A stretch of 64,000 bases of DNA from NCBI GenBank assembly GCA_002633005.1, contig NMRA01000237.1:492092-556091 (forward strand), read 5' to 3'. Below the pieces are notes generated by a model. It worked only from the letters and a program-made list of their open reading frames with translations, was not told where the DNA came from and did no database searches. A program made the position numbers and the translations under genes. This stretch comes from Phoronis australis (Eukaryota; Animalia; Phoronida). Positions within the stretch are counted from its first letter, which is position 1. Every line of letters starts with the position of its first letter. This document shows positions 21,601-50,683 of this stretch, in pieces.

Positions 21601-22217
21601 AGGGTTTCAACCCAAACAGGACGTATGAGTACAGGATAAGAGTTGGCAATGAATACGGCATGAGTGAACCCTCTCTTCCGGTCTCGACCTATGACCTCAA
21701 GAGGTTGCAGGACAGAGACATCTATGGTGCTAAACGAGGATCATCAGTTCCACCAAAGAGACAAGGTAACGTCCAATATTTGTGTCAGCCCAGAAGACTA
21801 GTTTCCAACTATGCTATATTATAGCATTGATTTGATAGTTTCTTATTTTCACAACCAGAAAAGCATAATACCTTAACAATTTCAGCTCTTATCAGAAGCC
21901 ATCTTCCGAAGTTGTACTAGTAGGTGTGGTGATCAGGCTGTTCCAAATTTTAGACAACTTAACCCTCCATCATCCCTGTTCATGACTGAGCTTAAATTTG
22001 GAACAGCCTGATCACCATGCCTCCTAGTGTTCAATTACTTCGGAAGATGGCTGCTGATAGGAGCCGAAACTATCAAGGTAGCATGCTTTTCTGGTTGTGG
22101 TTACTTAGTGGTATAGTAGAGCATATTGTAGCATGTTCAGAAAGCCAAGTGCATTTGTAACAGAATTTTCCAGTTGTTTTCAGAAACATGCATGCATGGA
22201 TATATTTAGGCAGACCG

Positions 22218-31100: not shown

Positions 31101-34100
31101 GAAGTATGACATCAAAACCAGGAAAACAAAAATACGGGTTGTGATGATGATGATGATGTCAGCTTGGCCGCCATCGATTTGCGCCAAGCGAATCATTACG
31201 CTTTCACAGACAGTTCATTTATTAATTATTTTTAAACGCGCATCCTGTATTGTCATGCATGATACGCATCGATCTTTTTGACTTAACACACCGTGAACAG
31301 CCTGCGCGGGCCTGAATTGATTGACGTGGCTTTAAACGGCGATCACTGGACCGAGAACGAAGTCGCATTTTACCTCAAACAACTGGCTGAAGCTATCCAA
31401 CACCTGCACAACCATGGCGTATTACACCTGGATATCAAGGTAAGATAAGTAAGACGGGCTTATATCGCTCATTATCACCTAGTACATCACTATAAGGTCT
31501 GAAAGGGCACACGAGTTGATTCTTTACTGACTTGGGTGGCAAAAGGTCACTTGTACCCGCTTGAGTTTGGACCACGTCCTCACAAAACGAACAAACTTAC
31601 CTGTATCTTAGCAAAATTACCTGCATTTTTGTCCGCACTCTCTGGGGATACTCGCACGGGTTTGATAGCATTCTCAATGAACCAGGTATTACACATTGGC
31701 AATGAAGAGACCATGAAGGGTCATTAAAAATATATTTAAGTCGCGGCACGCACTGATCGTGTCTGCTCAGTGAAATGACAGACTGTTCTTGGTCCAATGT
31801 TCTGTGGTGATAGAACGAACTATCGTAGAGTTCCAATTCATGTACGACACCAAGAGATTTGATAATTTTAGTAAAATTGGGAGTTGATTTTAATGTTTCT
31901 AACCGCTTGGGACAGGGCCCAACAAGCTTGGCTTGTCACAACGTGTCATTCCATAGTCTCAAAGAGTCACGAGTCCCTACTTCTTTGCAAACCCAGGAAT
32001 CACCTTTCATCTTAATATAGGGCAAGTTGAGACCATTTTTTTTATCGGTAAAATTAGTCTGAATAAAAAGTTTCACTAGGGACGGGACGCAAAGATTGTC
32101 GTAACGTGGCAGCGGACCAATACAGAAACCATTGCAACCAAAGCTTAGACCATAGGCCTATTTCCAGGGCTGGCTTGCAAAAGATTTCACTATTCCAGCT
32201 GATGTCTATAATTAATGCAACTGCGTTTTAATATTGATTTCGTTTGGTTCTAAACCGTCACAGTTATAACAGTGTCACTGATTTTGAAGTGACAAGGACA
32301 AATTATTGGTTCACACTAGGTAGATTTTATTTCGAAAGTGTCAGCGCCTCAATGATTTATCTATCGTGATGGCGTTTAATTATCCCGAAAGATTAATGAT
32401 AGGTAGGTCTCGAGGTGGGAATTCTCGTTTCGAAGAGATTTATGAGTTAGTTCCATGTATTATCAATCTTAACTGCCTTTGAAAGCAGACAAGAGGTGGA
32501 TGTTTTTTTTTGTTATTGAGGCCCGCAAGTTTGATGGTGGTTTTGACAATGGCGTAGCCAAAGCCAATATTAAACTGAAAAGGGACTAGGGCAGGAAATT
32601 GGATAACATTAGGATCACGAGTTGTCGTGGGAGTTCACGCATGCTCTGAATGATCGCCATCACTCTGCAAGAGACATGATCTTCGCGGGTGCACCCGGTC
32701 ATCCAAATCTTACTCGATTATTTTGCGCAAAAGATTCTCCAGCGCCATGTTACGTATGTTGTTAATTCGTTGTGCTACACTTTCATAATACTGAAATAAA
32801 CTGAGTAAAATATAAGCCCTACCCACGGGTAGGCATAAATATAAACACAGTGGCATCACTGATTAATTAATGCTATTATGCCGGAAATTAAGTACAAAGT
32901 GGACGTCCGTTTACCGAATTGCTTTCAAGGTGTACACGGCACCGTTCACCTAGTACATGTACAAAATGGTATAGGTGAATGCTAACACTAAACCTATCAA
33001 CTTAATCGTCAAATTGAAGCGTCGGATAAACTTCAAGCACGATTTCATTGTAAATAGTATACTTAAAACTCTTCAGTAAATATACTCAGCTCAGCAGACG
33101 ATAACGGGCCAGAGCAAATAAGCTGGGAATAGTGATCTGAGGTAAGATGTGTTAGGATTTTGGAGATTCAAAGATGCAGGGTCTAAATTTTCGCATAGCC
33201 AAGTACTGAAGCAAAGTATTAGCAGATAGGTTGGGGTCAAGGACGATGGCACATGCGTCGGGGGCTTCACTTTTAAAGCGACAAGATCGGCGACGATGAA
33301 GTATGAATAGGATGCATAAGACGGAACGAATTATACGAATTTACACCAGACAACAGCCTCAACAGTTGTTCCGGGCTCTTTCATAAGAAATAGGTTGATT
33401 CCCTTGTGCTTTCATTTTCGTAAAAATTTGAGAGGCCAGTGGCCCTCGACGTCCCTGTTAAATCACATGACCTACAGGCACCGACTTCCTTTAAAGAAGT
33501 ATTTGGATGTTCATAACTATGCTAATATGCAGGAACTTAACGACGATGCTATTTGAACATCATCTACGCTAAAGCAAGTTCAGTATGTTGTGTTCATTGA
33601 CAACTTCATTTTCAAGCCGACTTTGCCCGGCTTGAAATTCGTGGTGTAGCAGAATATGGTATTCTGGCAATACCCACCCCCAAAAATACATGGGTTAGCA
33701 GTTATAGTTATCAGGTTTTCAAAGCGGATTTGTCCAATTTGGATGTTAGACTCGGAGAGGAATTCAATCGATTAAGTAGTCAAACGCGGAAAACCGTCAT
33801 TACAATCTTTTCTAAAACAATATTAGGTTTACCTAAAATCGATCCAACCTAGCATTAATGTGAATGGAAATGTTCAGCTTATCTCACACGACACTCCAGG
33901 GCTCGATTTCTTTTCCCAAATACTTATTATTGTGAGGTTATTTCTCCAATGTGCTTCGGCTCTTCACTAGCCACACTAAAATATGACTTCGATAAGCTCA
34001 ACCACTATCTTGTATATGGACATCACAACATGGGCGGCGCACCATAAGGGGCTGGGGTACTATAGACCCACCGCATTTTTCAGTGCTACGCCGCCAATGG

Positions 34101-37100
34101 TCTGTGGGCGCTGCACCACAGGGGGGGCTATACCCCCATTTTTTTCAGTGCTGCGCCGCCCATGCACAACGCTACACAAATTACATGTGTTTGGTCCATG
34201 TTGCCTGATATAAATAATGTTCTACACACATAGCCATGTTGATCAATTCTCGCGAACTTTTCAATTTTCCAAATCAATAGTAGATCATTTCCGGAAATCT
34301 CTCTACTCGCGGCCATGTTTTTTTCACTTGAGGACTCCTAAAGGACTTTTGGAGAAGTGCGAGCTGTATTATTAACTATTTCATACGATGATCGGCTATT
34401 CAGTACTCAAATGCTTCAATTGACTCGTGGTGTGCATCGCTTGAAAAACTTGATATCGAGTAGCGAATTTCTCACATAAGCCGGCGACTATTTGTAATAG
34501 CAAATGAGTGCAAGCACGTTATGAAACTAATCTATGAACTGAGTAAGGAGGAAATTCTCGGCTTATTTGTGTGTACTCGCATTTGTTGCTTGTTCGATGC
34601 GGACGTTCTCGTAGTCGTCCGAATGGTAAGTGAGGACATATTTATGTGTCACCATCTTCACCTTCATACACACAGAAGCTGATTAATCCTCTGAGTCGTC
34701 TCGGCCGCCCGACCCATGTATTGGACATCAATCAATTTACTCCCACAGCTTACAACCCCACCCCGTACGCGTTTTGCCAATGACTGTAAACCTCTTCATC
34801 AAACCTCAAATATTCAAAAATGTTAAGACATTAACTAATTTCACCTTTTTACGCGTTATGTGGGTCGTTAATTTACTGACTGACAGGGACGTTTTTAAAC
34901 TGTTTCTTAGTGCCGCTTTCCACGATGTTTACGAAGTCCCTTAAAAAACTACCAGGGTCATTTTCACCGTTAAAAATTACCCAAAAGCCAAAATTTACTG
35001 CTACATCAGCATATAGTGCAACAAATTTCTTTTTAATGGTGGGTCGTGATGTGTACGGGAGTAAGTAATACTCTTGTTGTGATTTCCAGTAATCCATCTG
35101 ACATTTATTTACCATTAGTTGAAATTTCTTTAGAATATATACTGATAAGAAGCTTAACAACGTAACCACTGACACGTGATTGGGTTTTTATTTTCTTTCT
35201 CCAAGTGTAGCAAAATTCGTTTAACTTATTAACGCGGATACGTTATCTGCCTATATTCTAATTTTCCAAACTACATGAGCAATCTGTTGCTATATCAGAC
35301 AGCTGTGTGGATCTTCATGACAGCTGCTATAACTCTCAATGTCAAGTTGTAAGCTAAGCTTATCAGCACCGAACCAATATCTTTTTAATACCTTTCAATA
35401 GCCTCTATATAAGTTAATTTTTGATCTCCTATTCAGGCTGAATTGTTCTCTCAAATTCTTAAAAATAGTGGCACAAAATTTCTGTTCGTGATATCGTAAA
35501 TGCAGTGTATTTGTCGTATTCGTATGCTTCATATTTCAGGCCGTGATTCATAACAAGTGCTTATTACGTTTCGTTAATTTCTCTTACCTTCTGCATTCCG
35601 TTCCTCAAGTAAGGCTTCGTTCAAAGTTTTCTCCGTCTACTGATGCATTGCATAGTATTTCTCAAGAACAAATCCTCTCAGCAAATCTCTTGATATAAAA
35701 GATTCCGCTACAATAATCTGATTATAATGTAATTTTTTCAGCCGGAAAATTTATATCTGGCGCGACCAGGGTCTACAGTACTCAAGCTCATAGACTTTGG
35801 CAACGCCAGGAAGTTCACCAGCAAGGAACCAGCGAGCGTGACATATGGTGATCCCGAGTTTGTAGCGCCAGAAGTAATCCACGATCAAAAAGCAACACCA
35901 GCGGCTGATCTGTGGAGCTTTGGAGTTGTCACCCATGTCTTGTAAGTGCAAACTTTAGATGATAAAAGACAATGAAACGTTTAACATAATCCAGTATTGA
36001 TTACCGAATGTGTAGCGTCTTGGAACCTCAATCCTTTTCAAGGAATCCAGGATTGGAAAGTTGACGGATAACAATAAAAGTAGTGTTAGTGTACAAACGT
36101 GCGTATAGAGTTACAACATAATAAGCGACCGAATTACACCCGTGCTGGGTCTCCTGTTTCAACTTGTTGCGCTCACAACTCGTTGTTTTACAAAGCGTCA
36201 GAGGCACGAAAGAAAACAAAGATTGCGGCACCTGCATGACATTGTGTACGGCATCTGTGATATTTAATTATGTCATTCAGTCTTGTTAAGCTGAAGTGAA
36301 AAATTAACTGCTTAAGTGTCATGTACTTGAAACGAAAGAATCTGGTTGGCCGGACAACTAATTCATACTTTTTCACACAGCGTACGCGCCTTTCCTCAAC
36401 TTCGCTGCAGATAGAAACGGGGGCGAATATTGCTCTTGTTCACCCGTGATTTCAATGCAAAAGATAGCGAAAAGAACCAGGCTTAGTGGAAGTCTCGGCT
36501 ATTCAACCCTTGACTGTTGAGTAATGCGGTCCTCAGAATACACAAAAGAAAAGCAAACACTTGCGAAATGTGACTGGCGTTCACCTAGGTGGAGATTATA
36601 TAGCTATATATTTACCCGTCCTTGCAGGTTGACTGGTCTCTCGCCATTCGTCGGGTCGAGCGACTCAGAGACGGCACAGAACGTTTTGAGGAGAAACTTC
36701 AACAAGCAGCATTTGGAAGGACTTTCTGAAGACGCCAGAGACTTTGTGAGCGGCCTTCTACGACTCAATCCCAGGTAAAATCGATTTTTCGCCTTTACTG
36801 CAGTATCAACGAAATAAGGGGATTTCAAAAGTCTTTTGCTGGGTTGTACAGCACCACGAGAGTTGAATGGGCGATACCCTTTAGTATCCTTAGCCTTAAA
36901 AACTAACAAACCAGTTATACATACTGTTACGTAAATTCATACTCCGTCTATCAATTAATATTACCCAATAGGCCGAAATCAACTTCAAAGACGTCAACAA
37001 GGGTCATGGTTTAATGTCCGAAGGTAGCGACCAGACTCGACTGGATAAGAGATCACCAATAGTCGGTGTTGTACATGTACTGATGAAAATTGTTACAGTA

Positions 37101-40100
37101 GAAGAATCGCCTGGTATAAAGTGCCCGCATCATTTGACTAAGAACCAGTTTTCACCAATGAATAACGGGTATCAACTGGTTCTCAAAATTCGGGCACGCT
37201 ACATCAGATTTTTGCCCGGACATAATACCAACCTATGTAAAATTCGCTATTTAGCTGTGAGACACGCATTCTACGCCGCGAAAGTCCGGTTGTCCTACGG
37301 CAGAGCAAAATTTAATTCATTTCACCCTGTTTCAGGAGCTGGTCAAAAATACAAACTTATGCCTTTTGCACTCATAAAATCGGCCTCCCCTAGTTATCCT
37401 GATAAAATGATATTTCTGTTGTCGACAACACCATCAAGACCTTCAACGATTCAATAAAGAGCTTAACCCTACTGAAAATTTGCGAAGCGGTGTATGTACC
37501 CATTACCTGTGGCTTTAGTTGCTGTCTCATTTAGAGGCAGCAATTCAAGATCATATGAGCGTGGTAATATTTTTTAACAACAAACCGCTTCGACCCAGAA
37601 TTCAACATTGACAGCTAAACAGCGGCGAATGACCTTTGATAATTATGTTGCGCTGTGTTAGTAATAACGCCATGTTGTAATCTCACTTTATTGCAACAAG
37701 TGTCAGGTTGCAGACGAGGCTTAGTTACATAGCACACAGTGAAGTATTGTTATTCTTGTGTTGAACGTGTGAAAAGAGGTCTTTGGCTGAAACCTGAATG
37801 CTGTTAATTTTGCTTTGTAATTAACAACGCTAGGCTTCTCAGTAACCTGAATTTGGAAGGACTTTGGAATCGCACTTTCAAGGGCGGGAATCAACAATTG
37901 GCCTGACTTCAAAACCAATTACCCGGTCTTCCAAACCGGTCAGATAGACTGCAAAAAATGGCCGGTGATCAAACGTGTTGTCTGGACTTCAAAACCCGAT
38001 GGCCTCACCTAAAAAAACTAGTTGGCTGGACCCAAAACACAATGGCCTGGGATTTGTTCGTCCATTGTGTTTAAGCACCAGCCAACAGGTTTTCGGTCCG
38101 CCCAACCATTTTTTAAGTGCGTCCATCTGGTTTTGACGTAGGCCTATACCGGACATCGCGTTTTGGAGGTCCGACCACCAAGTTAGAACACCGGCCATTG
38201 GGTTTTGCAGTCCAGCCAGCTGATTTTGAAGTCCGGGCAAGTGGTATTGAAGTGCGACCAATTGCTGATTCCCCTTGTCTTTGCTTATGAAGTTCTTTTG
38301 TTAGAACAAGTGTATGGAATTAGTAGAGTTCCGCATTCGGTATGATAAATCCATAGTGAGTTTATTCAAGCATGTGGGTCACGTCAGTTTTGCGAATATT
38401 TTATGACTTTTGAGGGGGTGGTATCATTTCGTTGACGTTTGCCTGTGATACAGAATGATAGCGAATTTTATTGTTTGTCCGAGGTGAAACAAACCAGGTA
38501 ACTGCTTTATGAAACTCGTCATATTTTTTGTGTACAACCATATTTTGGAAACTGCGTGCGCTGTGTCACAGCATGATCTCTAGATTTGAAGACGCCCAAT
38601 TCCTCGCGCCAAAATCTAATAAACGAGAGACAAAGGACAAGGAGGGACGACTGAAACAGACGAAAATAATATACTTTAAAAATTGACCTGGGCCTCGGGT
38701 CTAATGTTTGTACTCGAAATTATTTTTGACATATCCCGTTCTATTTTTGTGCGAATTCAAAATAATCTTTGTCTTTCATCCATTGCTATTCTCGTTATAG
38801 TTAACGTGGGCGATCATAAAAACGTATCATGATTTTGATCTGGGTGCAAAAATAACCTAAAGCTGCATGTCTTTGTATTCTAAACCAGTATCAGCGAAAA
38901 CGTTTAATCGGTGTCCCCGAAAAAAATGGGATACGCGATTATTGCTAGAAAATTCAAGGACACACAGCTTTGGAGATTTTTTGTACTTCAACCAAAGATC
39001 ACGATTCATTTCGATGTAAAAAATGCGAAAATTCGGTTTAACTCGAATTTTATCCGTCTTATTCGCCAAACCTGGATCAAGCAACATGAAAATGACAAAT
39101 CCTTGTAATGCGATAGTCATGTGTTCTACAAGAATTAGTCATGTGATTTGTACAGGGCTTATTGTCTTGGAATGTAATCGTCACATGGCTTAATTCCAAC
39201 GACCAATCGAGTGAGTTGTGCATAGTATATTGATCTTAGAATATACATTATGATCAGATTCGGAAGACTTGTCATTTTAATAAAATGATGTATTTCATGA
39301 CGACAGGTCCACCAAGATCAATAAACTTCGTACAACTGTGAAACACATCCGACTATAGAATTCTTGGAATATACGCGATGATCACACTTAACGCAGGTGT
39401 CATTTCATCGCCTGATTAAAATTAGACTTCTTGGACACACCACGAAACCACGAAAGTACCATCAAATAGGAAATAGTCACTTACAAAAGTCCCGGATTTT
39501 AAGAGATACTTTGATACCCGTTATTCAGAAGAGAAAATTGCTTCTAGAAATACGGGACTCCTGTTGGTGACTGTTACTATGACATGCATTACGTTAACCG
39601 AACATAACTGAAGTTGACTTGGGAGCTACAGTGAGTAGTATAGGCCTGATTTCACTTCCAGCCAGTTCTCTGTACACGTTGTGTGATCGTACCTATTGGT
39701 ACTAAAAGGATTGCATATTAAATTTCAGCGAGAGATCCACCATTGAATATTGCCTGGACCACCCTTGGTTGAAATTGGCAGAAAGCCACGAGCACGGAGA
39801 ACCACTTTCTCTTGCAAGACTGCGAGACTACACAACACGGAGGAAATTTGAGGTGAGCCAAGTTGAAGACTTCGGAGCCCGTCTTTGTTACTTAACAGAC
39901 GACTCCAAAAGATTTCTTTTTTCAAATTTTTGGTCACTCATTATAGAATTCATTTCTTTTCGACAATGCAATGCTTCGGTTGTTTCGAAGCTCAGAATTG
40001 ACGTTCAAATTCAGTAAGAAACTGGGCAGGCGACTCTAGTAGCTGCAATGGCCTTATTCGAACATCGGTGCTTTTGTTACCGAAAATCGCCGAAATACGG

Positions 40101-43100
40101 TGTTTTGTGCATTTAAAGGAGTTATAGCTTTGATTCTAATCCGTTTCAATGAAAAAGAGTATTTTTCGAACATAACGAATGACTGAAATATTTGTTTCAG
40201 CGAGTTGAGAGACAGGGGAAATTCTCTCCGAAGCGCCGTCTATTGGAGAACTTCATGAAATCCCAAGAACAAGTTCCAGAAACGCGGGAAACAACAACCC
40301 AATCGGACACTGCTCTCGACGAGCCCGAGTATCCGTTTCAAGCCGAGGATCAGACGTGGATCGAGTGGCTGTCTCGATACCAGCATGGCCCTGATACTTT
40401 CCTCATTCCTCTCAACGATCCGGAGCTTCCGGTCCGCTTAAGGTCTTACAGAAGAACCGAGGGACAAAGGTCTAGTGCCGACACCAAGCTTTCCGAAGAG
40501 ATAGAATCTGACATTGAATTCATTCGGTCCCGCACAATGAAGGAAAGACGCAAGCTGACTGAATTTGACACCACTGACGTGCCTAAGTTGAAACTTACAA
40601 AATTGGAGGCGGTGACAGGCTTAAGTTCTATCGACAGCAAGCTGCTGGCCATCAAGCGCCAACTGGATAGTGGCGCTGAAATGAAAAGAGTTGCTCGCGT
40701 CGAAGGAGGTATAAGTGTAGCGTGTAAATGTTTGGAGCACGAGAGCTTTAATAAGAGTAACGAATTAACTTATAGCCATCAAGTCAGGAGATTTATTAAC
40801 TCCACTGACGTGGCGGTCGACTTGGATGTCGGCGAACTGCATGAAGTGATGTGTTTGGAGAAACTGCATGCCAGCTTAAACAAGGTTACTGAAATACTCC
40901 GTAGTTCTGAGAGAACTCTGCATGCTGAATTTGAGGCGTATGCCTTAACGAGTAGAAAATGGAAAGTGAGATGCTCTGGCTGTTTAGGCAGTAGTTACTT
41001 GCATGCAGAAACACGTGCGTGTAATAACGTGAGTGATGCACCTGAATGTACGTTTGTACTAAATTTCTTAGAAAATACTAAAGAAGTTACGCTGGAGGCG
41101 CCTCCCCCATTTCCAGATTCAGAAACTGATTCAATAACTAATCATAATGTCGTGAACCTGTTGAGCGAAGACGGCAAATCAAACGAAAAGCTCAAAGCAG
41201 ACGACAATCAGAATCTGCTGAATACACCAACAGTTCACAATGTTGAACAAGTGAACGTAGATGAGATAAATGTTCTCACACCGATGGAGCCTCAGCCCTC
41301 TCTAAAAGTCATAGAGGACAGTGTCCAATCTGTTGCCACAAAGAAGCGTGTTCAGTTTCGCAGAGGCCGAAGTTCTAACTTTGACTCTACAACTGAAGCA
41401 GAGACGCCGTCTGTAGCCACACCCATAATTGTTGAACCTATAACACTGAGCTCTACGCCAAAAATGGCGACTGTAGCCACGGAAGTGTTGCTCAGGCGCA
41501 GACGAGCCTCACAACCAGTCGTCATGGGAATGAAGCAGCCACAGCGTCTAGTTACTAGAGACGACTCAGTCCTTAAATTATTCTCAACGCCAACCGTTAA
41601 AGGAAGGATGGATTCCTTGCAAGTTCCCAGAACTAATCCATTAGGCAGACGATCAAGCGGTTCAATTGTTCCGCTCAACAGCCAACGACGCAATTCGACC
41701 GCGGAATGTCTTGATTTTTTGTTGGATAGGCATCTTGATCGTTCTTTGAACACGTTCAAGCCGATAAAACCATCAACAATATACAAAGCTGCGTTTGCTC
41801 AAGGATTAGTTGTTGGAACTTGTGCTGCTCTCGTGTTTCGCTTTCTATGCATATTTTTTTAATTTTTATTTTTGTCTATTTATTACTATTGTTCTTGACA
41901 AGCTCGTTTGTTTGGATTATATAAACTTGTCTATCTAGACAGTTTAAATAAAACGTTAAACTACTAAAAAAACTACTAAAATCGTTGTCCACATTGCGAC
42001 ATCTTTGTGTATGGAATGGCAGAAAAATTAAATTTCCATTAGTCTACATTGGGTTCCTAGACCCCGATTTCTTACAATGTGACTGAAGCATAAACACAAA
42101 TGGTGCGAAATGCTTCTCATAAGATTTGTCCAGTTTCATGGCTACTACTAAACTAACTAATTTCGTAGCTAGGTCTAACTTGTTTAACAGCACGTTGTTA
42201 AGTCCAACTCAGCACTAATTACACGGAAGGTCACACACTTTAAGCCTCAGTAAATCAGAAATCTATTAAGCGCCAAGGGGTTCTTGATCGAGTAACTTTC
42301 TGCGCGTTGAAATGTGCATAATCAATGCGTATTTTTAGATATTTAACGATCATCGTTCGCTCTTATTCAACGCGTACTTTTGCCTAGTCAACGCGTTGTT
42401 TTACTTAACCAACGCGCAGTTTTGATTATCCAACGCGTGCTTTTAGTTTTTATAGATCATATTTCAGCTTACTTTTGCTTGACCAACACGTTGTTTGACT
42501 TAATCAACGTGCTGAATTGGTTATGTCCAGTCAAAGACAAGTTTACATTCACTATGTAACGGCGCCGTCATTTACGAGGTCTCTTGATACGAATATGCAA
42601 CATTCTTTAAAAGTTGCCTTGCACCCATCTTAAAAGTCTTGCTATTTTGAGATGAGAGGACGGGCTTGATTGGCCTATATGAACTGATTAAAAATACGCC
42701 TTGGCTAACTAAAACTATGCGTTGATTAAGCAAAGGTTCGCGTTGAATAACAGTAGAACGATGATTGCCCAAGAACTAAAGGCACGTTTTGATTAAGCAC
42801 ATTTCAACGCACAGAAATGTACTCTTAAGAACCCTATGGCGCTTCTGATAGAAATCAGGTTTGTACTGGTGAATCATTCCGTTGAAGAAGTCAATGGACT
42901 ACTCGGTCTATGTTGTTATGTGTAAATAAGAGTACAAATGGACGGCAGCAAACAACCAAAACGAAGATTCCACCCCAACCGGCATGGGACTTTAGGAAAG
43001 TAGTCCTCGAATTTTTATCGACCATTTGCCTGAGTGAGAAGCCTCAGTGACCCACGTTTACTGACCGCTTCCCTTGACTTTTTGTCGAGCAACGGTTTTC

Positions 43101-46100
43101 AAAGAAAATCGGAATGTGCTACATTCACAGTTGGTACGAAACATACCTGGATTGAAAACCACCCTCTGTTCTATTCACGTGACCTTCACGAATATTCGCA
43201 GTCTCAAACTATCAAAATCTGCAGTGAAATAACGTCACTCAAAAATCCAAAACAGACAATCCTCTTTTAAACGTCCTTGTGCGTTCCCTTGACTTCAGGT
43301 CGTATCCAAATTATTTCCATTCAACTGTCCCAGCCAACAGAGACACTCGACAGGTTTCGAAGCAAACAAGTCACATGTCTACATGCTGTCGTGACTTTCT
43401 TAGGGCACACAGTAAAAAGATCATAACCTGAACAAGATCGAGCTATTGTCGAGAATCTAGAATTGTCGGTAAATACTGCAAAACGACCAGGGAGCCCACG
43501 TTTACTCTCTGTACTCGAAACTCGAATCGGAAAGTTGACAAACTGCATGGCACACTTCGAATAAAGTTACTCAAACCATTTTGTACGATTCCGGTTTTTT
43601 TCCAAAACGCTGACATCTTGATTTTTGACAATAGATTTCTCGGACTCAAAGGGCTTAAAAAAGGAAATCCCAGACACCCTTTTGTAGTTCATAGAACAAA
43701 GAAACGGCATTTGTAAGTTTCGAGCGAAAAAATCAAAATTTGTGGAAAATAGTGCGATCTCCGTGGAAAATCGCGAATTTTTAGAAAAAGTGCAGTCACA
43801 TGATCACGATCGTCTGAAATGTGTTTTCGTGCACTTAATAAGATTCTGTAATACACAAAGATTTTAAAAACATATAGTTTTATGAGTCTACTATTAATAG
43901 TTTAAAAGTTATTTTAAAAATCAAATCTTTGGTAACGAGAGTAGACAGTGACCTTAAATTCCATGTCTGAGTCCGAGATTGAAGGTTTTGCCTGGGACCT
44001 GGAGGTTGTTTCATAAAAAGTGACGCTATGCAAAAGTCAGAAATTTTGTTTTATGCTCCCACTTGCTAAGTGAAATTTCCAAGACATTAAAATTTATAAA
44101 CAATATCTATAAATTAACTGACTAATTAGCCACTTAGGCTACAGGGAGACTTCGTGCTTTGCTGCATAGATACTATTTGTGGATATGCGTGGAGCATTAC
44201 TATCGAAATTTTTTACTTTAAAAGAGAACGGCCCTCTGATCGAGGTGGAACCAACAATGATGCTATTTCAATGGAAATTCTAAATAAGCTGTGACAACAA
44301 TATGGAAAGGCATTTCTTTGCATCGCACCGTGTTGTGCATACTCCTTTGTCCCAGGGTGAAAGTAACCATTCTAAGGCAAAAATAACAGTTTACGCAACC
44401 CCATAAAAACTACCCCGTTTTCTGATTGTCTTTCATACATTCTGACTTTATCTTTACAGGAACGATCCCAGTGTTCTGTGAGAAACTGCGCGACACAGCG
44501 TACAATGTCGGCGAACCGGTCACTCTGTTTTGTCACGTGATAGGAACCCCATTTCCAAGTATCACGTGGTATAGAAACGATCAACTGTTGTCTGGCGGCG
44601 GGGACGCGTCCGATTCCAGCGAGCGCCTTGGTTTCACGCACTCACCAGATGGCCGAGCAACGCTGACGATCTTCAACACAAAGCCGCATGACGCTGGCGT
44701 TTACAAATGCGTCGCTAGAAATAAACTTGGCCGAGTAATCAGCAAAGCTCGCCTTCTCCTCGGTGGTGAGAATTATTCATAATCAGACGAAACCCAAATA
44801 GTGGGAAAGAGCGGCACCAGATTACCTTTTTTCGGATTTAGGTGGTTTAGAGTTATCTCATACGTCTGTCCATTTGGATTGTTGTTTTCTCCTCTTGATA
44901 TTCTAAATCCGCCTATCTGAGATTAGATAAATGCACTCCTAACTGGCTTCTTTTTTACGATTTAGCAAAGATAATGACGTTGTTCATGGTAATTAATGTA
45001 TATACACGGGGGCCTATTTTGACTTCTGATAAGCCGCCAAGACATTGGACGAACATTAACTAAATATTTAATATAGGAAACTTTCGCAATTGTGGTATGA
45101 ACTTTTTTACACGGGAAGTTGCATACATTCTACAACGTTGGAGCTCAAGTAACAAAGACTGGAGAGTGGTAAATAAAATTGCAGGTAAATTATTGATATA
45201 ATTAATTTAAAAAGGGACAGAGACGTTAACTTGACAACGTCTGAATTTCGTACGCATAAAATGCAACGAATTCCAGACAAGGGGGACTTACCTACAGCAC
45301 AAACTGGGACAATTAAGAATGTGAACCCAAATTTATTTCAGATGTTCCTGAACGACCTGGAAGACCGGTTGTTTCTCACGTGGGGGCACGTGACATGCTG
45401 GTTATTTGGGATGCCCCAAAATCGGATGGCAACTCACATATTGTGTCCTATAGAGTTGATTGTCGCAAAGAAGGTAACGATTTTTATGTTTTTTTATAAA
45501 CTATGATATGCTTTGTGTTTGAAGGTAATTTAGAATGTTTTCAAAAGATCCCAAGGCGATTGTTGAAGAAGTAAATTTGAATCGATTCGTGAGAAGAAAG
45601 GTTTCCGTAATCATTTTCCTTTCGCTTAAATGTCCCTTTCAGACTTTCTGTTGCAACCGCATTTATGTATTTCTGAAATTCATTGCCTTAATCATGTCTA
45701 GTAGTCATGTGGCGCTAGTCCTGTTCACCGCATTTTCTCCGAACGCGCCATCTTTCGAGCGAATGTCAATTGCGTTCTGTTGTTACCTATAGGGGATAGT
45801 CGTTGGACTACTTGTTCTTACGTCATCGACGAATGCGCGCTGGTGAGAGGTCTACACCCGGAAACAAAGTGCAGGTTTAGAGTCTCTTGCCAAAATAAAT
45901 TTGGAGTGAGCCCGTACAGTTACTCATCGATGGAAGCTATCACAAAACCAGAAGGTACCATATAGTAGATTAGTGGAAATATTTTAGCCAATCATAACGC
46001 CAAATGAAGCAAACTAAATGATCAAATGTGTGGATCGCATTACCAACCAATAATACAACTTTCTTCTTTGACCTTTTGCATATGATTCTTGGGGAACAAC

Positions 46101-49100
46101 AGCCCGTTACAGGAAGAATAGAGACATTCTTGGGGCAATATGCTAAACTATTCAAAGCAAATGTTACACGATTCTTCGAAGTGGAACAAATACATCTACC
46201 TACCTAGCCTCTCGTGGCCTTTGGGGGAGGGGTTGCATGACGTTATGCCAAAACTTTTATTATTGTGCTCTATGCAATACCTTGCCAACCAAGTCTACGT
46301 CCAGAAAACTACGTTCGCCCGCCCTTCCCCTGGTCACCTCATTTAACATAAGGCCATTTCCTCAATTATTCATTATACTTTTTCACAATAACTAATTTCA
46401 TGTATTTAAATCACTGCCTTTCCAGGTTTTCCAATGACTTCTGTCAGTAAAGAATTGAGGAGGTCACTGGTGCGCTCGAAAGCAGCCAATGAGAACCCAT
46501 CTCCGCATGAGAGTCCGACCAACAGCAGACGTGCTTCCGAGAGTGACGTAACTGATGAAGTCGTCCAGTTGAAGAACACAGATCCGAAGGAAGACTATAA
46601 CTTCTTGGCGGAAGTGACAAGGTAGGTGTGCCGTTTTACGTAAGCAAATGACAGTTACCGTTTCTCATCTTCCATAGTTATAATTGACAACCCTCTGTTG
46701 ACACGGATGGCAATACGTCAAACTTGGGAAAATAGGCACTTTCCATCGAGAGTTCATATGAAAATTTTTCTGATGTTTCTTTAAGTTTTAACAGTCTTAC
46801 CTACAATCATCGCCATTTCTGTTCTCGAAAATTGGTCAAATGCATGTCACGATTCCAGATACAAATTTATACTCAAATCAAGCGGTGTGGTTGGTCATGT
46901 TTCGAGTCCGAGTCCCGGTCAGGTCTCAGTTGAGTACGTTCTACTTTTATGTATATTCTTACAGAGAATTACACCGGACATCCATGGGCAATAACACACA
47001 TCCTGTGTGAGAACTTCTAAGAACCAGAGCATGATTGGTAACAGAGAATAATATTTGAAGTAACCTAGTGAAATCGCTGTTTCATTTTCAGAGGTGCATT
47101 CTCCACAGCCGTTAAGTGCCAAAACAAGAAAGGCGAATTAAGAATTGCCAAAGTTGTCAGATGTGACGACTCTGGAACCGAAGCAGCGCTGCACGAATTC
47201 AACTTACTGAAATCTCTAAGTCACGAACGTCTCGCGAGACTTCACAATGCTTACCAAACACAGGACTTTGTCGTGCTCGTCATGGAAAAGATGTTTGGCG
47301 GAAACGTAGTCCAGTGGCTGTCATTCAAGAACAAGTATAGCGAAGAACATGTTGTTCGCGTACTTCGACAGGTTCTCGATGGTTTACAATACCTGCAACA
47401 CGAAGGAATCGCACATTTGAATATTAAACCTGGGAATGTGATGATGGCAAACAGAAGAAGGATGGATGTTCGAATCATCGACTTTGGCTACGCCCGCAGC
47501 ATCACTGGTCCAGATGGAGAGAAAACTGACAGATTTGGTGACCCTGAATACATGGGTGAGAATCATGAAAACCTCCTGGTTTAAAGTATTATCATAAAGA
47601 CGTTTTAAGATGCACTCATTTGAATACTTATTTGTTCAATTCATTGATAACGTTTGAAAAGCAGCGAGGGACTCTTTTGGAATTTTTGAGACATTTTCGC
47701 AATCAAACGATATCAATTGAGTGTTCATACCTTTGCCTCGTTGCACGTGTATCGGTGCTGTTGACTCTGAAACGGCAATGATCACATTTTCACACGTTAT
47801 TTACAAGGGTACCAAACCCTGTTTTGACTTATGAACAAATATTAAAAATGACGTTCTCAGCTAGTTCTCAGAAACAAAATTAATGCTCTTAAATTCTCGA
47901 CAATCCTCTAATGTTTTGAGCAGAATTTGGAAATTCCTTACGAAGTCTGCTGAACGAGCAAGCATGATTGGAGTTACACGACAACTGTAGGGAAAGACCA
48001 CCCACCATGAACCACAATATTCTATCTGTGACACAGAGAGAATGAGTTTTTAGTTGAATCCCGCTTCTATCACTCAAGTGGGGCGTCAACGATGCATTAA
48101 CAGGTGACAGAACGAGGATTGGTTGATATCACCAAAACAAGGTTTGGTATCCCTTTAGTCATCATACGAGTCAGTACCTGAGCGTAAGTGCAATGGTGAA
48201 ACTCCTTACGATGATTTTGAAAACCTGTGTGTCACCAGTTCCTATTCTTATCTTCAGCTCCTGAAGTTGTACACCAAGAGAAAGTTGGCTTCTTCACCGA
48301 CATGTGGAACATTGGAGTTTTAACGTTCATTTTGTAAGTAAATTTGATGAGTCGGGGACGCTCGGTAGAGTTCATGAAGTGAATACGCTTAAGGCACTTC
48401 GCCAACCTTCTGAAGAGTGTACGAAAAGTGCGATGAGTTTTGAAAACAGCAACGCACCGAAATTCTTACTGTGAAAACAGCTATTTGCAACTCATGATTG
48501 TAACGTCATCGTTAACGGATGTTCTTCGCATAAAGTTCAATTTGTTATCAGTTGAAGCGGCTACATATCTGCCTTCCGTCAAAAATACTTAGGATTCGGG
48601 ATACTTACAGTAATGTAACTGGTCTAAACTTCCCTCTTTCTCAAATACGATTGCTGAGCTTGGGGAGAACTGTTTGAGTTCTGGTCATTTTGTGGGCCAA
48701 TTATGGCCAGCTCTTTCCTAACCCAGGAAGCAATTTATATAAGTAAGTAGTCTGAACCAAGAGATAGATTCTGTGAGGCACTCAACGAAATCAACAATAC
48801 GGTTAATAAAACAATTACTGTCTAGTAGGCTACAATTACAACGTTAAGTTCTCTTGCAGGCTGAGCGGCGAATCTCCATTCAGGGCGGATACTGCCGATA
48901 AAACTGCAACTAAGATTAGCTTCCTCAAGTACGATACTCACGAACTTTACAAGAATATCACTAAGGAGGCGCTCAAGTTCATCTTCCAGTTGTTGAAACG
49001 CGTGCCCAGGTAATACTAACTTTTTCGAAATTGTGCGTTCAGGGTTGCATTCCGTTGACTTTAAACACCTGGCCCGCGAGAAAAGCTAAGTGTGATCACG

Positions 49101-50683
49101 ACGTGCTTCAGCTGTAATACGTGAGCCCGCTTTTCTCGCCAGAAACTTAATCTACGGAACGCAGCCAGGTTACATTTGCGGGAAGCTAGCCGTAAGCTGT
49201 GGAATTCGATCAACATTTTTTGTAAAAACGATATAACCGGTGCTCAATTCGAGAGCTGTTGTGGTGAGGCGATCGCACGGTTACCTGACAACCAATAAGG
49301 TTTCCCAAGGTTTGTCTCTCTAGTCTTGCTTATCCACCACTGGTGTTCGTATGTCGCCGTATTTTTGCGAGTCGTTGTATTCTAAGATTTTGTGATCGAC
49401 TACGGAAATCTTTTAGCTGCAGCAAGTCGTGGCGATAGGTGATCACCTCTGAATTGACAAATGCCTTGCATCCCCTCTTCAAAACAAAGGTTGTTACTTT
49501 TTGATTACTGTTAGCTTTTTTGAGCTCATTCATTCAAAAAAGTTCTCGTAACCTCGGCAGATAAGAGTTGAGTTCCGTAGACCCAAAACAATCGCGAGAA
49601 CAATTACATCAAATTGTGATCTCGTGTTTCGCTTGTATTACAGGGCGATATCTCGCACAAACTTGTATAATTTTACCCGCGTTTCCGCGAGTTTATTGCG
49701 TATACAGAACGGAACCTTGGATGTAGTATATTAGCGGCGACCATGGGGATTGGTCGCAGAGTTTCAAGTAGAGGATCTTTGTTTTCACAAACCCCTGAGA
49801 TGTAGAACGTGTTGTCCAAAAACAGTGTGGAAAGCTCTGAAACGAGGATAAGCCAGCAACTTATTATTTTGAATGACTTATTCTTATTAAAATGACTTGG
49901 CCTCAAAAGTGGGGCTTCATAAGTTAATAGAGAGGCCCCTCATATAAGTGGCCTTCGGGCGAGGCTTCTATTTTTAAAATATAGGGTGCGCCGTTACTGT
50001 ATAACACAACAAGTTTATTTTTGTTGCTACGAAATATTACGTAGAGTTTGTTGAAATTTTAAATACAGTATGGCAATTGTTCTTGGGAACCGCTTGTTCT
50101 TGATAAAGCGGTAAGCATGCGCACTACCGGGGGGGGGGGGGGGGNCGAATGAGACAAAAAGTTCACTAAACAAGCACAAACGCGCCATTCACAGTGGTGC
50201 CCCCGTTTTTTTTCAGTCCGCCCGTTTTTTTTTGTTACCAAAAGGTCCACAACGTCAAGATTTTGAGCCCCCTTGTATTGAAAGCTGGGTGCGCGCATGA
50301 CAAGGGTACGATGTCTCTCCACAGGGCACACGTCAGAATCACGTCTCTGATATACTTCAAATACGCGTTTCATGAATACACTATGGAAGGTTTTCAGTTT
50401 AGCTGCAAAATTTCCTTTCAGCAATCGCTTAACGCTCGAAGAAGCAATGGATCACAAATGGTTGGAACTGTCTGAGCAGATCACACAGCGCCGCGAGCAA
50501 GCGATGTTTGGAACAACTCGCCTCCGCCATTTTGCCGACCAGTACCGAGCGAAACAACGTGGCACGCTGCCTTCGGCCAACTTCGTCCAAACGTTTGGCT
50601 CACTCTCCAGATCTTCGTCTGTAGACTCGGAGACCGCGCTGGATGACGGAGAGGTCGAAGGTGCAACTGCAAGCCACTATTAA
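1..50683 (+). CDS. unc-89: Obscurin/UNC-89-like giant muscle protein, 5'-truncated multi-exon gene: PH end - Ig x5 - FnIII x8 with P/S/Y/R linkers - Ig x2 - kinase PK1 - linker - Ig - FnIII - kinase PK2
   Basis: About 38 non-redundant GT-AG exons chain in frame to TAA at 50681-50683. The C-terminal Ig-Ig-kinase-linker-Ig-FnIII-kinase order downstream of a PH domain is the obscurin/UNC-89 architecture. Motifs such as TQYAV, WFKDWHP and GPDTFLIPLNDPELPVRLR resemble arthropod Unc-89 (from recall, not a search). Confidence 0.9.
1167..1296 (+). CDS. unc-89: unc-89 exon, Ig N-half (copy 1)
   Basis: ttgcag|CA..TG|gtaagt; PNFVKRLASVDVIENQEVRFDCRVTGYPEPDITW. Confidence 0.88.
1651..1826 (+). CDS. unc-89: unc-89 exon, Ig C-half (copy 1)
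   Basis: cacag|G..A|gtaagt; YKDGLEI..SDAGLYTCKAANKMGE. Confidence 0.88.
2763..3229 (+). CDS. unc-89: unc-89 exon, Ig plus Ig N-half (copy 1)
   Basis: ttccag|GT..CAG|gtttgt; APQFTKTISD..DSGTYTCRATN..APQLV..VIWYHNKKPLQ. Confidence 0.88.
3820..3949 (+). CDS. unc-89: unc-89 exon, Ig N-half (duplicate copy 2)
   Basis: 130-bp copy of 1167-1296 with intact splice sites. Confidence 0.8.
4315..4490 (+). CDS. unc-89: unc-89 exon, Ig C-half (duplicate copy 2)
   Basis: 176-bp copy of 1651-1826; one F>Y change (CAC TTC vs CAC TAT). Confidence 0.8.
5217..5683 (+). CDS. unc-89: unc-89 exon, Ig plus Ig N-half (duplicate copy 2)
   Basis: 467-bp copy of 2763-3229; A>V change (ELPAT vs ELPVT). Confidence 0.82.
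6155..6321 (+). CDS. unc-89: unc-89 exon, Ig C-half
   Basis: ttgcag|GAG..AG|gtcagt; ESDRVRF..DGGDYTMKAAS. Confidence 0.85.
6709..6834 (+). CDS. unc-89: unc-89 exon, Ig N-half
   Basis: tttcag|C..TG|gtaagg; APTFTKKIKDCEVVEGGVARFDCRVVGSPEPDIVW. Confidence 0.88.
7348..7450. repeat. Near-perfect inverted repeat (about 40-bp arms, 23-nt loop), MITE-like
   Basis: ttttaagtctggtcagcacgccatctgttggccac ... gtggccaacagatggcgttctgaccagacttaaaa, 1 mismatch in 35 bp. Confidence 0.85.
8038..8210 (+). CDS. unc-89: unc-89 exon, Ig C-half
   Basis: ttcag|G..T|gtgagt; FKDGTEI..SDIGEYSCNISN. Confidence 0.88.
8792..9208 (+). CDS. unc-89: unc-89 exon, linker plus FnIII-1
   Basis: ctatag|..G|gtaaga; LSWQP..YVIEYRE..GLKTSYDYLFRVRAKNEFGLSEPS. 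Confidence 0.88.
9268..10998 (+). mobile_element. Non-autonomous Helentron/DINE-1-like (HINE) element with internal tandem repeats
   Basis: Starts in a T-run with TTAGGCGCCCAC and a small palindrome (ccacata-ttta-tatgtgg). Ends with the inverted copy GTGGGCGC inside a GCAATGC..GCATTGC stem, then CTTGTTT. Body is about 145-160-bp subunits grouped into a roughly 445-bp higher-order repeat. Confidence 0.65.
11109..11897 (+). CDS. unc-89: unc-89 exon, P/S/Y/R-rich linker plus FnIII-2
   Basis: NAGNAG acceptor (11109 or 11112); donor G|gtaagt; LKWSPS..YTLEYREP..DFEPERDYEYRI. Confidence 0.85.
12192..12260 (+). CDS. unc-89: unc-89 small linker exon (69 bp)
   Basis: tttcag|GT..T|gtaaga; phase 1-1; YDLDYDLPEIQGRSLSPSSQRT. 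Confidence 0.7.
13259..13564 (+). CDS. unc-89: unc-89 exon, FnIII-3
   Basis: gacag|CT..G|gtaggt; PWIENY..DLCWTP..GLNPNTEYEFRVRAE. Confidence 0.88.
14696..14989 (+). CDS. unc-89: unc-89 exon, FnIII-4
   Basis: tctag|AC..G|gtatgt; PWITNY..DLHWSP..GLDKSKNYDFRV. Confidence 0.87.
15606..16391 (+). CDS. unc-89: unc-89 exon, Pro/Arg/Tyr-rich linker with RLxSPEP repeats
   Basis: ttacag|CC..G|gtaatt; 786-bp open phase 1-1 exon with internal peptide repeats. Confidence 0.8.
16702..17010 (+). CDS. unc-89: unc-89 exon, FnIII-5
   Basis: tttcag|CA..G|gtaaca; PWISNY..DLEWSP..GLEPDADYEFRI. Confidence 0.88.
17965..18273 (+). CDS. unc-89: unc-89 exon, FnIII-6
   Basis: ttgtag|CT..A|gtaagt; PWITSY..DLSWTP..VPDKEYEYRVRGE. 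Confidence 0.88.
18537..18612. repeat. Short tandem duplication (about 36 bp x2)
   Basis: atttaccgctaggtcttctgctc(a/g)taacgtg.. occurs twice in tandem. Confidence 0.8.
19825..20157 (+). CDS. unc-89: unc-89 exon, FnIII-7
   Basis: tgtcag|CC..G|gtaagg; PWITEY..HLNWAP..LLPDVDYEFRVR. Confidence 0.88.
20504..20575 (+). CDS. unc-89: unc-89 small linker exon (72 bp)
   Basis: tttcag|AT..G|gtacaa; TYVKKPASTEPYSYELPESERSR; phase 1-1. Confidence 0.65.
21397..21765 (+). CDS. unc-89: unc-89 exon, FnIII-8
   Basis: ttgcag|TG..G|gtaacg; RLSWPE..GFNPNRTYEYRIRVGNEYGMSEPS. Confidence 0.88.
21880..22069. mobile_element. Foldback/MITE-like inverted repeat (about 70-bp arms)
   Basis: tttcagctcttatcagaagccatcttccgaagt..ggtgatcaggctgttccaaattt versus aaatttggaacagcctgatcacc..acttcggaagatggctgctgataggagccgaaa. 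Confidence 0.75.
22222..22271. repeat. (AC)n microsatellite ending at an assembly N (22272)
   Basis: Directly visible. Confidence 0.95.
22780..22905 (+). CDS. unc-89: unc-89 exon, Ser/Pro/Arg-rich linker
   Basis: tttcag|GT..C|gtacgt; YQSPSPSPKRKTYSPD..; 126 bp, phase 1-1. Confidence 0.75.
23519..23653 (+). CDS. unc-89: unc-89 exon, linker
   Basis: taacag|CG..T|gtaaga; QYSLPHHRRNF..EEPERP; 135 bp. Confidence 0.75.
24924..25032 (+). CDS. unc-89: unc-89 exon, Ig N-half
   Basis: cttcag|AT..AG|gtaagt; LEPRFECPMGLTQYAVENYAAKIECSLFGYPTP. Confidence 0.85.
25081..25113. repeat. (GCT)11 microsatellite, intronic
   Basis: Directly visible. Confidence 0.9.
25392..25570 (+). CDS. unc-89: unc-89 exon, Ig C-half
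   Basis: gttcag|G..G|gtcagt; WFFNEEKL..DIGEYKVCAEN. Confidence 0.87.
26390..26671 (+). CDS. unc-89: unc-89 exon, pre-kinase Ig
   Basis: ttctag|AT..G|gtaaat; PPTFLEPL..GLPYPKVTWFKDWHP..DAGRYSVAVEN. Confidence 0.9.
27050..27131 (+). CDS. unc-89: unc-89 exon, start of kinase PK1
   Basis: ttacag|AT..AG|gtaagc; FEDHYHTLEEIGR. Confidence 0.87.
27246..28456. mobile_element. Degenerate TIR element (TA-flanked, Tc1/mariner-like MITE) containing a nested MITE
   Basis: TACGATATTTCTCCACTTATTT .. AAATAAGTGGAAAATTACCGTA; a related right-end fragment lies at about 12860-12950. Confidence 0.45.
27492..28177. mobile_element. Nested PIF/Harbinger-like MITE
   Basis: Imperfect TIRs AGGCCCTTTTTCAT / GTGGGAAAGGGCTT, flanked by TAA and TTA. 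Confidence 0.4.
28620..28823 (+). CDS. unc-89: unc-89 exon, PK1 N-lobe; ends at a U12-type donor
   Basis: ctttag|G; GSCGTTRRC..EFAAK..LDHPNLLRLHDAYE..IVTEL|gtatcctg. Confidence 0.9.
28824..31300 (+). other. U12-type (minor spliceosome) GT-AG intron
   Basis: 5' site GTATCCTG; branch-like TTTGACTTAAC at 31277-31287 about 13 nt before AG; no polypyrimidine tract; frame CT|C restores Leu. Confidence 0.85.
28846..28912. repeat. Degenerate 9-bp minisatellite (ATGACCTYS-like)
   Basis: catgaccttgtgtgatctccataaccatctatgacctccatgaccttgtatgaccttcatggccttg. Confidence 0.65.
31301..31439 (+). CDS. unc-89: unc-89 exon, PK1 hinge to catalytic loop
   Basis: LRGPELID..WTENEVAFYLKQLAEAIQHLHNHGVLHLDIK|gtaaga. 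Confidence 0.9.
34029..34164. mobile_element. Small MITE (head-to-tail dimer) with TIRs and 5-bp TSD
   Basis: CATGGGCGGCGCA..TGCGCCGCCCATG flanked by cacaa on both sides; two internal units of about 68 bp. Confidence 0.7.
35742..35941 (+). CDS. unc-89: unc-89 exon, PK1 DFG-APE region
   Basis: tttcag|PENLYL..LKLIDFGNA..GDPEFVAPE..ADLWSFGV|gtaagt. Confidence 0.92.
36628..36774 (+). CDS. unc-89: unc-89 exon, PK1 C-lobe
   Basis: ttgcag|G; LTGLSPFVG..LSEDARDFVSGLLRLNP; AG|gtaaaa. Confidence 0.9.
37879..38277. mobile_element. MITE with long imperfect TIRs and subterminal GGACTTCAAAAC-like repeats
   Basis: gggaatcaacaattggcctgacttcaaaacca versus tggtattgaagtgcgaccaattgctgattcccc. Confidence 0.65.
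39729..39852 (+). CDS. unc-89: unc-89 exon, end of PK1 and regulatory tail
   Basis: tttcag|C; ERSTIEYCLDHPWL..LSLARLRDYTTRRKFE|gtgagc. Confidence 0.9.
40201..40708 (+). CDS. unc-89: unc-89 exon, interkinase linker (short spliced form)
   Basis: tttcag|CGA; donor GGAG|gtataa, phase 1, joins in frame to 44460 (GTIPVFCEKLRD). Confidence 0.85.
40709..41862 (+). CDS. unc-89: Putative alternative terminal exon extension: 384 aa ending in a hydrophobic tail-anchor-like segment
   Basis: Frame stays open for 1.15 kb past the donor in AT-rich DNA; ends AAFAQGLVVGTCAALVFRFLCIFF*; AATAAA at 41947. Confidence 0.65.
41947..41952 (+). terminator. Candidate intronic polyadenylation signal AATAAA
   Basis: 85 nt after the alternative stop at 41862. 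Confidence 0.5.
42262..42852. mobile_element. MITE with about 60-bp TIRs and internal 22-bp CAACGCG repeats
   Basis: aagcgccaaggggttctt..gagtaactttctgcgcgttgaaatgtgc versus gcacatttcaacgcacagaaatgtactc..aagaaccctatggcgctt. Confidence 0.7.
44460..44765 (+). CDS. unc-89: unc-89 exon, interkinase Ig
   Basis: ttacag|GA..G|gtgaga; PVFCEKLRD..ITWYRND..DAGVYKCVARN. Confidence 0.9.
45342..45473 (+). CDS. unc-89: unc-89 exon, interkinase FnIII N-half
   Basis: tttcag|AT..G|gtaacg; VPERPGRP..WDAPKSDGNSHIVSYRV. Confidence 0.9.
45793..45954 (+). CDS. unc-89: unc-89 exon, interkinase FnIII C-half
   Basis: ctatag|GG..G|gtacca; RGLHPETKCRFRVSCQNKFGVSPYS. Confidence 0.9.
46426..46621 (+). CDS. unc-89: unc-89 exon, linker and start of PK2
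   Basis: ttccag|GT..AG|gtaggt; DPKEDYNFLAEVTR. Confidence 0.87.
47092..47555 (+). CDS. unc-89: unc-89 exon, PK2 N-lobe to activation segment
   Basis: tttcag|A..G|gtgaga; GAFSTAV..RIAK..HLNIKPGN..IIDFG..GDPEYM. Confidence 0.92.
48258..48333 (+). CDS. unc-89: unc-89 exon, PK2 APE to DxW
   Basis: cttcag|CT..TT|gtaagt; APEVVHQEKVGFFTDMWNIGV. Confidence 0.9.
48860..49009 (+). CDS. unc-89: unc-89 exon, PK2 C-lobe
   Basis: ttgcag|G..AG|gtaata; LSGESPF..ITKEALKFIFQLLKRVP. Confidence 0.9.
50116..50299 (+). mobile_element. MITE family CATGCGCGCACCC, copy A (interrupted by a G-run and the N at 50145)
   Basis: Shares TIRs and 3' body (aaaaggtccaca..gagccccc..aaagctgggtgcgcgcatg) with 56208-56459. Confidence 0.75.
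50422..50683 (+). CDS. unc-89: unc-89 last coding exon, end of PK2 and tail
   Basis: tttcag|C; NRLTLEEAMDHKWL..FGTTRLRHFADQY..ASHY*. Confidence 0.9.

Follow-up and report, generated by a model that had tools for sequence, protein, structure and literature searches.

The window analysed here, a stretch of DNA of 64,000 nucleotides, holds a gene of the obscurin/UNC-89 type whose alternative C-terminus is real and expressed and appears to be conserved; it is quite probably produced by intronic polyadenylation and predicted to give a tail-anchored, single-kinase obscurin isoform. The initial annotation had proposed an isoform that drops the domains Ig-FnIII-PK2 and is anchored in a membrane. Its first part is borne out by read-through RNA that ends by an AATAAA and by a tail and terminal helix kept in four relatives, while the membrane stands as a prediction. 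In the mechanism we propose, a weak donor at 40709 and a poly(A) signal 1.24 kb further down the intron would compete, with cleavage at about 41965. If the donor is spliced, the usual two-kinase end (40708>44460) is made; if cleavage wins, translation would enter a tail of 384 codons that ends in a tail anchor. The last ~23 residues would then insert post-translationally as one transmembrane helix, with the rest staying cytosolic, and the ~550-residue, mostly disordered inter-kinase and tail region could act as a flexible tether from the membrane to the filament of kinase 1 and Ig/FnIII domains. The read-through isoform would likely keep PK1 and lack Ig-FnIII-PK2.

Domain order and kinase motifs of the gene

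From tblastn searches with three named proteins as queries (Owenia fusiformis P0001, Sinanodonta P0006 from a bivalve and Cordylochernes 'SPEG' P0011 from an arachnid), the order Ig-Ig-PK1-inter-kinase-Ig-FnIII-PK2 could be assigned across 25387-50563. The best identities were mostly to P0001 (58% for the Ig after the donor, 42% for PK2), followed by P0006 and P0011. The C-terminal tandem of obscurin, UNC-89 and SPEG after Ig/FnIII arrays is present, with the window colinear with P0001 and P0006, and with P0011 from the inter-kinase region onward, and an upstream FnIII array is common to the window, P0001 and P0006. On the basis of the colinear domain layout and the shared FnIII array, we assign the window gene, at the level of sequence, as an obscurin/UNC-89 orthologue. 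Its host lineage is probably lophotrochozoan, although the trees do not place the window. Of the SH3-DH-PH RhoGEF module that belongs to this family, the start of the window shows, by eye, what resembles the end of a PH domain, and the remainder would lie outside the window. We additionally observed about nine FnIII exons with Pro/Arg/Tyr-rich spacers between them at 8740-21824, an arrangement also found in P0001 and P0006; the largest C. elegans UNC-89 isoform is given only two Fn3 domains in the available text of PMC11487192. Further upstream, 597-3244 and 3246-5698 form a tandem near-copy, 96-98.5% identical, with three Ig-coding frames and an N near the seam, which is either an artefact of assembly or a recent duplication of exons.

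The exons of PK1 lie on the plus strand at about 28618-28823, 31302-31439, 35742-35941, 36629-36774 and 39729-39852, as located by tblastn with P0001 and P0006 and by exon translations, with the start of the Gly-loop in the exon near 27028-27131 of the same strand and a Pfam Pkinase match for the 28567 exon. Joints within and after PK1 were found at 36774>39729 (from loose read ends) and 39852>40201. The latter leads into the inter-kinase exon (40201-40708, plus strand), which is bounded by RNA joints, common to both isoforms and the site of all 11 phmmer matches described below; it carries the conserved motifs W..W...YQ.GPDT.L.PL and KER, and Glu-Gly at its end. The exons for Ig-FnIII-PK2 follow at 44460-50683 of the plus strand; they are part of the spliced isoform and absent from the read-through form.

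In the exon translations, the catalytic motifs of PK1 are intact (AAKF Lys, alphaC Glu, HLDIK|PEN and DFG), and PK1 of P0001 and P0006 also keeps HLD..K.EN and DFG. In PK2 (47084-50560), the corresponding motif reads HLN, with the catalytic Asp replaced by Asn, and the same holds for PK2 of P0001, P0006 and the spliced cDNA L001. For fly and worm, passages of PMC10129394, in whose available text neither 'mollus' nor 'annelid' occurs, describe PK1 as the pseudokinase and PK2 as probably active. Judged by its motifs, the window gene has the reverse order, with PK1 intact and PK2 pseudokinase-like, and the kinase kept in the tail isoform is the one predicted to be active. Since the motifs of PK1 are intact and those of PK2 are not, the switch would leave the probably active kinase membrane-bound and parted from its pseudokinase partner.

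Splicing and read-through at the 40709 donor

The alternative 5' splice site GTATAA (40709-40714, plus strand, phase 1) is used in some reads and skipped in others. In its context GAG|GTATAA it matches 5 of 9 consensus positions, compared to scores of 4-8 for the best nearby candidate donors at the other 14 exon ends; its description as weak thus holds in that it sits on the weak side of this range, but it is not unique in this. The coding extension behind it (40709-41862, plus strand) is open and covered by sense-only RNA. Counted from the split codon, it comprises 384 codons (40708-41859), followed by TAA at 41860-41862, within a stop-to-stop frame of 559 codons (40183-41862). From base composition, the probability of meeting no stop over 384 codons is 8e-11, the longest open frame in shuffled sequence (n=5000) was 128 codons and the other five frames over the tail contain 9-36 stops each. 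Read-through behind 13 other, approximately placed donors of the gene extends for 0-54 codons, in agreement with the earlier statement that none reads through as far as the 40709 donor. The coordinates given for the open frame, for the hydrophobic last 24 residues (41788-41859; best 19-residue Kyte-Doolittle mean 2.23) and for AATAAA (41947-41952, plus strand) could likewise be confirmed. The cleavage site would lie near 41963-41966, and a genomic A7 run at 41966-41972, 13 nt past AATAAA and overlooked in the initial annotation, is a possible internal-priming site.

Four runs from two studies were aligned: X1, a set of contigs that we take by guess for RNA, although spliced joints and an intron without coverage are seen in it, and X2-X4, which come from one study and consist of stranded raw reads, with 18-19% of each run sampled. 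The joints 39852>40201 and 40708>44460 are both GT..AG. Spliced reads across 40708>44460 numbered 20, 29 and 4 in X2, X3 and X4, against 1, 9 and 6 reads unspliced at 40713, so that the read-through share, on these small counts, ranges from ~1 in 21 to 6 in 10. Used and skipped donors were both seen in all four runs and in both studies. As anticipated, RNA covers 40709-41862: an X1 contig of 1284 nt runs without a gap over 40680-41963 and ends 11 nt past AATAAA, and reads on the sense strand only extend over the tail to ~41650 (X2), ~41850 (X3) and ~41900 (X4), with a dip in coverage near 40870-41170. Depth is 0 in the upstream intron (39962-40142) and at 44125-44305, and in X2-X4 also over 41902-42084, beyond which it is ~2 again at 42146-42328 in X2 and X3. 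The 3' ends foreseen near 41970 were found in the form of the X1 contig end at 41963, but not as poly(A) reads, with no non-templated poly(A) loose ends listed near 41965 in X1-X4 at a depth of 0-4. The same donor is used and read through and the RNA ends soon after an intronic poly(A) signal, as in a composite terminal exon, and cleavage and polyadenylation near 41965 are likely from the RNA end beside AATAAA.

Alternatively, the tail signal could come from unspliced pre-mRNA, oligo-dT primed on the genomic A-run, with the open frame unused. While the A7 run, the lack of poly(A) reads and the weak constraint among X1 differences described below would fit such an origin, the frame, open against a probability of 8e-11, is kept together with its terminal helix in four distant relatives, AATAAA is placed 13 nt ahead of the A-run and the intron upstream of the exon is without reads, and we consider this origin very improbable. 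Two further features of coverage were noted. At 40841 in X3, a boundary common to 6 molecules at a depth of 14 precedes the coverage dip and could reflect duplicates, a read-filter effect or a minor shorter 3' end. At 44458-44765, the depth of the X1 contig for Ig-FnIII-PK2 is 962, three times that of the contig upstream (320), which could be due to 3' bias or to a PK2-only transcript from an internal promoter.

Tail and terminal helix among relatives

A phmmer search of 1.84 billion representative proteins returned 11 matches, namely three spliced Ig/kinase forms, four fragments ending before the junction (P0007-P0010) and four tail-bearing proteins (P0002-P0005). Each of the four that cross the junction and have no Ig behind it ends in a single predicted transmembrane helix. 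The tail-bearing relatives, taken from ENA and Logan records, are 18-28% identical to the window and go on from the inter-kinase motifs into a non-Ig tail of 336-462 aa. In all five tail-bearing proteins, the window included, Glu-Gly follows 44-56 aa after KER (chance per protein about 0.08-0.19), in the window at the position of the donor, and the spliced cDNA L001 has Asp-Gly directly ahead of its Ig. From this we infer that the tail of the relatives would come from the same read-through exon. With the helix removed, tails scored above shuffles in 6 of 10 pairs; in the tail alignments, shuffles reached the observed score in 0/300 cases for window-P0002, window-P0004 and P0004-P0005, in 1/300 for P0002-P0003 and P0002-P0004 and in 2/300 for window-P0003, and the window-P0005 alignment was not significant against shuffles. 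P0002 and its cluster mate P0013 differ in 27 alignment columns, of which none lies within the first 181 residues and some are in-frame indels in the tail; in the last 209 aa they differ only by I>V.

In trees, from which P0007-P0010 were omitted as they end early, P0005 is placed together with L001 and the bivalve P0006 (97/99, on long branches), or with P0006 alone (91/95). For the window, P0002 and P0014, Owenia gives the best score among the spliced forms. Taking both affinities into account, the tail probably spans more than one phylum, with P0005 as its weakest member. P0012 (45 aa, from the P0002 cluster, with no visible likeness) stands outside all counts. No tail-bearing arthropod or nematode protein is among the 11 phmmer matches. 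Word-seeded homologue searches with the window frame among longer proteins gave 0 matches, those with the P0006 region returned only P0006 itself among 170 candidates, and no named, annotated tail isoform was found in them. Of two metagenome scans, the first produced 55 pattern matches, none of them a relative; in the second, 1 of 148 was a relative, the spliced two-kinase cDNA L001.

The records of P0002-P0005 describe proteins of 477-640 aa that begin in the inter-kinase exon, as would be expected if the tail RNA arose from an internal promoter in or near this exon and encoded a short membrane protein without kinase 1. C. elegans unc-89 does use three promoters, as stated in passages of PMC11487192, and across the 508 nt of the exon our short reads leave PK1 and the tail unlinked. 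However, the exon is entered via the 39852>40201 joint, the upstream intron has a depth of 0 at 39962-40142 and no start cluster is listed within the exon. The starts of the relatives look more like gene-caller starts on unspliced contigs, with P0005, P0007 and P0014 opening with intron-like residues that end in Gln. An internal promoter is therefore unlikely, and read-through from the upstream kinase exons is the preferred origin of the tail.

The tail is mostly predicted to be disordered and gave no match at cut-off when the tails were compared with Pfam and PDB, nor did ESM Atlas give a usable match for the tail or for P0004. The AlphaFold model (7 sequences) has a mean pLDDT of 34 and is confident only in the helix 524-552 (pLDDT 77-84 over 531-550), as would be expected of a disordered tether with one helix at its end, though low confidence also results from a shallow alignment. 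Between the X1 and window tails, 16 listed coding positions differ, with no stop and no indel. By codon, 5 differences are synonymous and 10 of 15 change the amino acid, about 0.65 of the neutral rate and too few for a stop-avoidance test. The tail linker is weakly constrained, since these differences are mostly amino-acid changing; two of them lie within the helix and exchange one hydrophobic residue for another.

The C-terminal helix itself (41788-41859, plus strand) is a predicted tail anchor with a G-xxx-G-xxx-A pattern, as suggested by hydropathy, dG, AlphaFold and four relatives. Membrane prediction was by hydropathy and by approximate dG from Hessa-scale parameters only. With a 19-residue hydropathy of 2.23 and Gln and Arg inside, the window helix is moderately hydrophobic, and its approximate dG is -0.86, compared to +4.8 for the next segment. 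Each of the five tails has one favourable membrane segment (dG about -0.9 to -2.5), with the second best above +4.3. The helix is followed by 0 residues in the window and by 11, 5 and 8 in P0002, P0003 and P0004, so these four have a single helix within ~30 residues of the C-terminus and no other transmembrane segment in the tail. P0005, in contrast, would not be a strict tail anchor, because about 57-65 residues follow its helix.

Window and relatives share the helix pattern [FL]xx[GS][LM]xxGxxx[AG][LVI][LVI], i.e. G/S-xxx-G-xxx-A/G; the pattern was built from the same segments and P values for it are therefore circular. Against core-preserving shuffles, the window helix was equalled in 0/200 cases with P0004, 1/200 with P0002, 4/200 with P0005 and 9/200 with P0003 (4 of 4 pairs above shuffles), but the relatives had been found by likeness to the window. 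Among the relatives themselves, the helix beat shuffles in only 1 of 6 pairs, P0002-P0004. It is conceivable, though decidedly unlikely, that the helix is not transmembrane and instead rests on the surface of a membrane, associates with a partner or signals degradation. The moderate hydrophobicity with Gln and Arg inside and the approximate dG of only -0.86 would suit such a role, but all four relatives have a single 23-aa segment that is equally or more favourable, and the G/S-xxx-G-xxx-A/G spacing of small residues is typical of membrane helix packing.

Membrane binding could also be brought about by prenylation at a CaaX motif, on the Cys at position -4. The window ends C-I-F-F, and the X1 allele has Leu at the third of these positions, which makes a better CaaX motif. 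Among the five tails, however, only the window has Cys at -4 (0 of 4 relatives), while the hydrophobic pattern upstream is shared. As the terminal Cys is not conserved, prenylation is unlikely, to the point of being scarcely credible in place of a transmembrane helix, and CaaX was rejected as a conserved anchor. As a species-specific addition in the window it could occur alongside the predicted transmembrane anchor.

Further motifs were considered in the tails. A short motif, C/A-T-hydrophobic...E...A/S-P-P, at 41047-41106 (plus strand) aligns in the window, P0002, P0003 and P0004; a regular expression for C/A-T...A/S-P-P, made from these same sequences, matched 3 of 5 tails, P0005 not among them. 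Clusters of RRxS/T (PKA-type) were seen upstream of the helix in the window (41400-41700) and in the tails of P0002 and P0003, with P values against shuffles of 0.001 for P0003, 0.04 for P0002 and a borderline 0.07 for the window, and P0004 and P0005 not above shuffles. RVxF (PP1-targeting) occurs in 4 of 5 tails, but at unaligned places and each time at chance level (P 0.26-0.37), and a conserved site of this kind was not adopted. In KASH proteins, a short lumenal peptide that closes with PPPX comes after the transmembrane helix; none of the five tails has this ending or a KASH Pfam match, and this class was rejected.

Candidate membranes and known obscurin isoforms

In the mammalian rules of Costello et al., as given in the available part of PMC5450235, ER targeting is favoured by a helix that is hydrophobic and has few charges after it; lower hydrophobicity or more charge shifts the protein to mitochondria. 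After the helix, the window has no residues, and P0002-P0004 carry a charge of about +1 to +2 by eye. ER/SR is therefore favoured, though not settled, as the likeliest membrane, with a probability somewhat above even. The mitochondrial outer membrane is a plausible but clearly less probable target, and any other membrane is not very likely.

Vertebrate obscurin A (OBSCN), which is without a kinase, binds a separate SR protein, small ankyrin-1, whereas the window tail itself has a predicted membrane helix and one kinase stays. In both, the kinase end gives way to an alternative C-terminus that is non-modular, in obscurin A with a link to the SR (excerpts of PMC12812942 and PMC2172649). The single gene with many isoforms and the end PK1-inter-kinase-Ig-FnIII-PK2 are shared with C. 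elegans UNC-89 and Drosophila obscurin, which differ from the window in the kinase order noted above, and worm UNC-89 is needed for SR organisation and mitochondrial shape (passages of PMC12812942, PMC11487192, PMC13242403 and PMC3388081), the latter through its kinases (PMC11487192, PMC13242403, in part). In the available text of a 2026 review (PMC12812942), fly and worm obscurins are described as having no ankyrin-binding domain, and it is called unknown whether small ankyrins mediate the nematode SR link. A direct, testable answer on the SR link, for at least one large invertebrate clade, would be a conserved isoform that supplies a membrane helix of its own; the tail isoform alone does not answer the question for fly and worm. 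Separation of PK1 from PK2 would additionally allow a test of the idea that both work as one unit, put forward in passages of PMC10129394.

The initial annotation knew of no described membrane-integral obscurin, and none was found in the accessible parts of the openly licensed literature, though one might sit unremarked in RefSeq isoform annotations. The word 'transmembrane' occurs 0 times in PMC12812942, PMC11487192, PMC13242403 and PMC3388081, and a literature match to 'C-terminal transmembrane' concerned junctophilin. As far as the literature searched shows, the isoform would be the first integral-membrane obscurin. It is a serious possibility, if one falling a little short of probable, that lophotrochozoans of annelid-like and mollusc-like lineages retain, from a common ancestor, a poly(A) switch that makes their giant sarcomeric obscurin an integral membrane protein, tying the myofilament lattice directly to SR or mitochondria without ankyrin and freeing an active kinase 1 on that membrane from its kinase-2 pseudokinase partner, with the pseudokinase/kinase order of fly and worm reversed.

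Solo/Trio8, a form of Trio, has a hydrophobic C-terminal anchor and ends far upstream of the kinase. It is similar to the tail isoform as a short, membrane-associated form of a related RhoGEF giant (PMC4536496, in part), a likeness by description, and differs in being neuronal and endosomal. DMPK A-D and E/F are comparable as forms of a muscle kinase, which alternative splicing makes tail-anchored (ER/mitochondrial) or cytosolic (passages of PMC2778554). DMPK is, however, a small protein of another kinase family, and the switch in the window is a donor read-through that removes the second kinase. Downstream of the obscurin gene, 61464-64000 of the minus strand holds a neighbour gene that by eye looks mucin-like, with tandem repeats rich in Thr/Ser and, after them, an EGF-like stretch rich in Cys.
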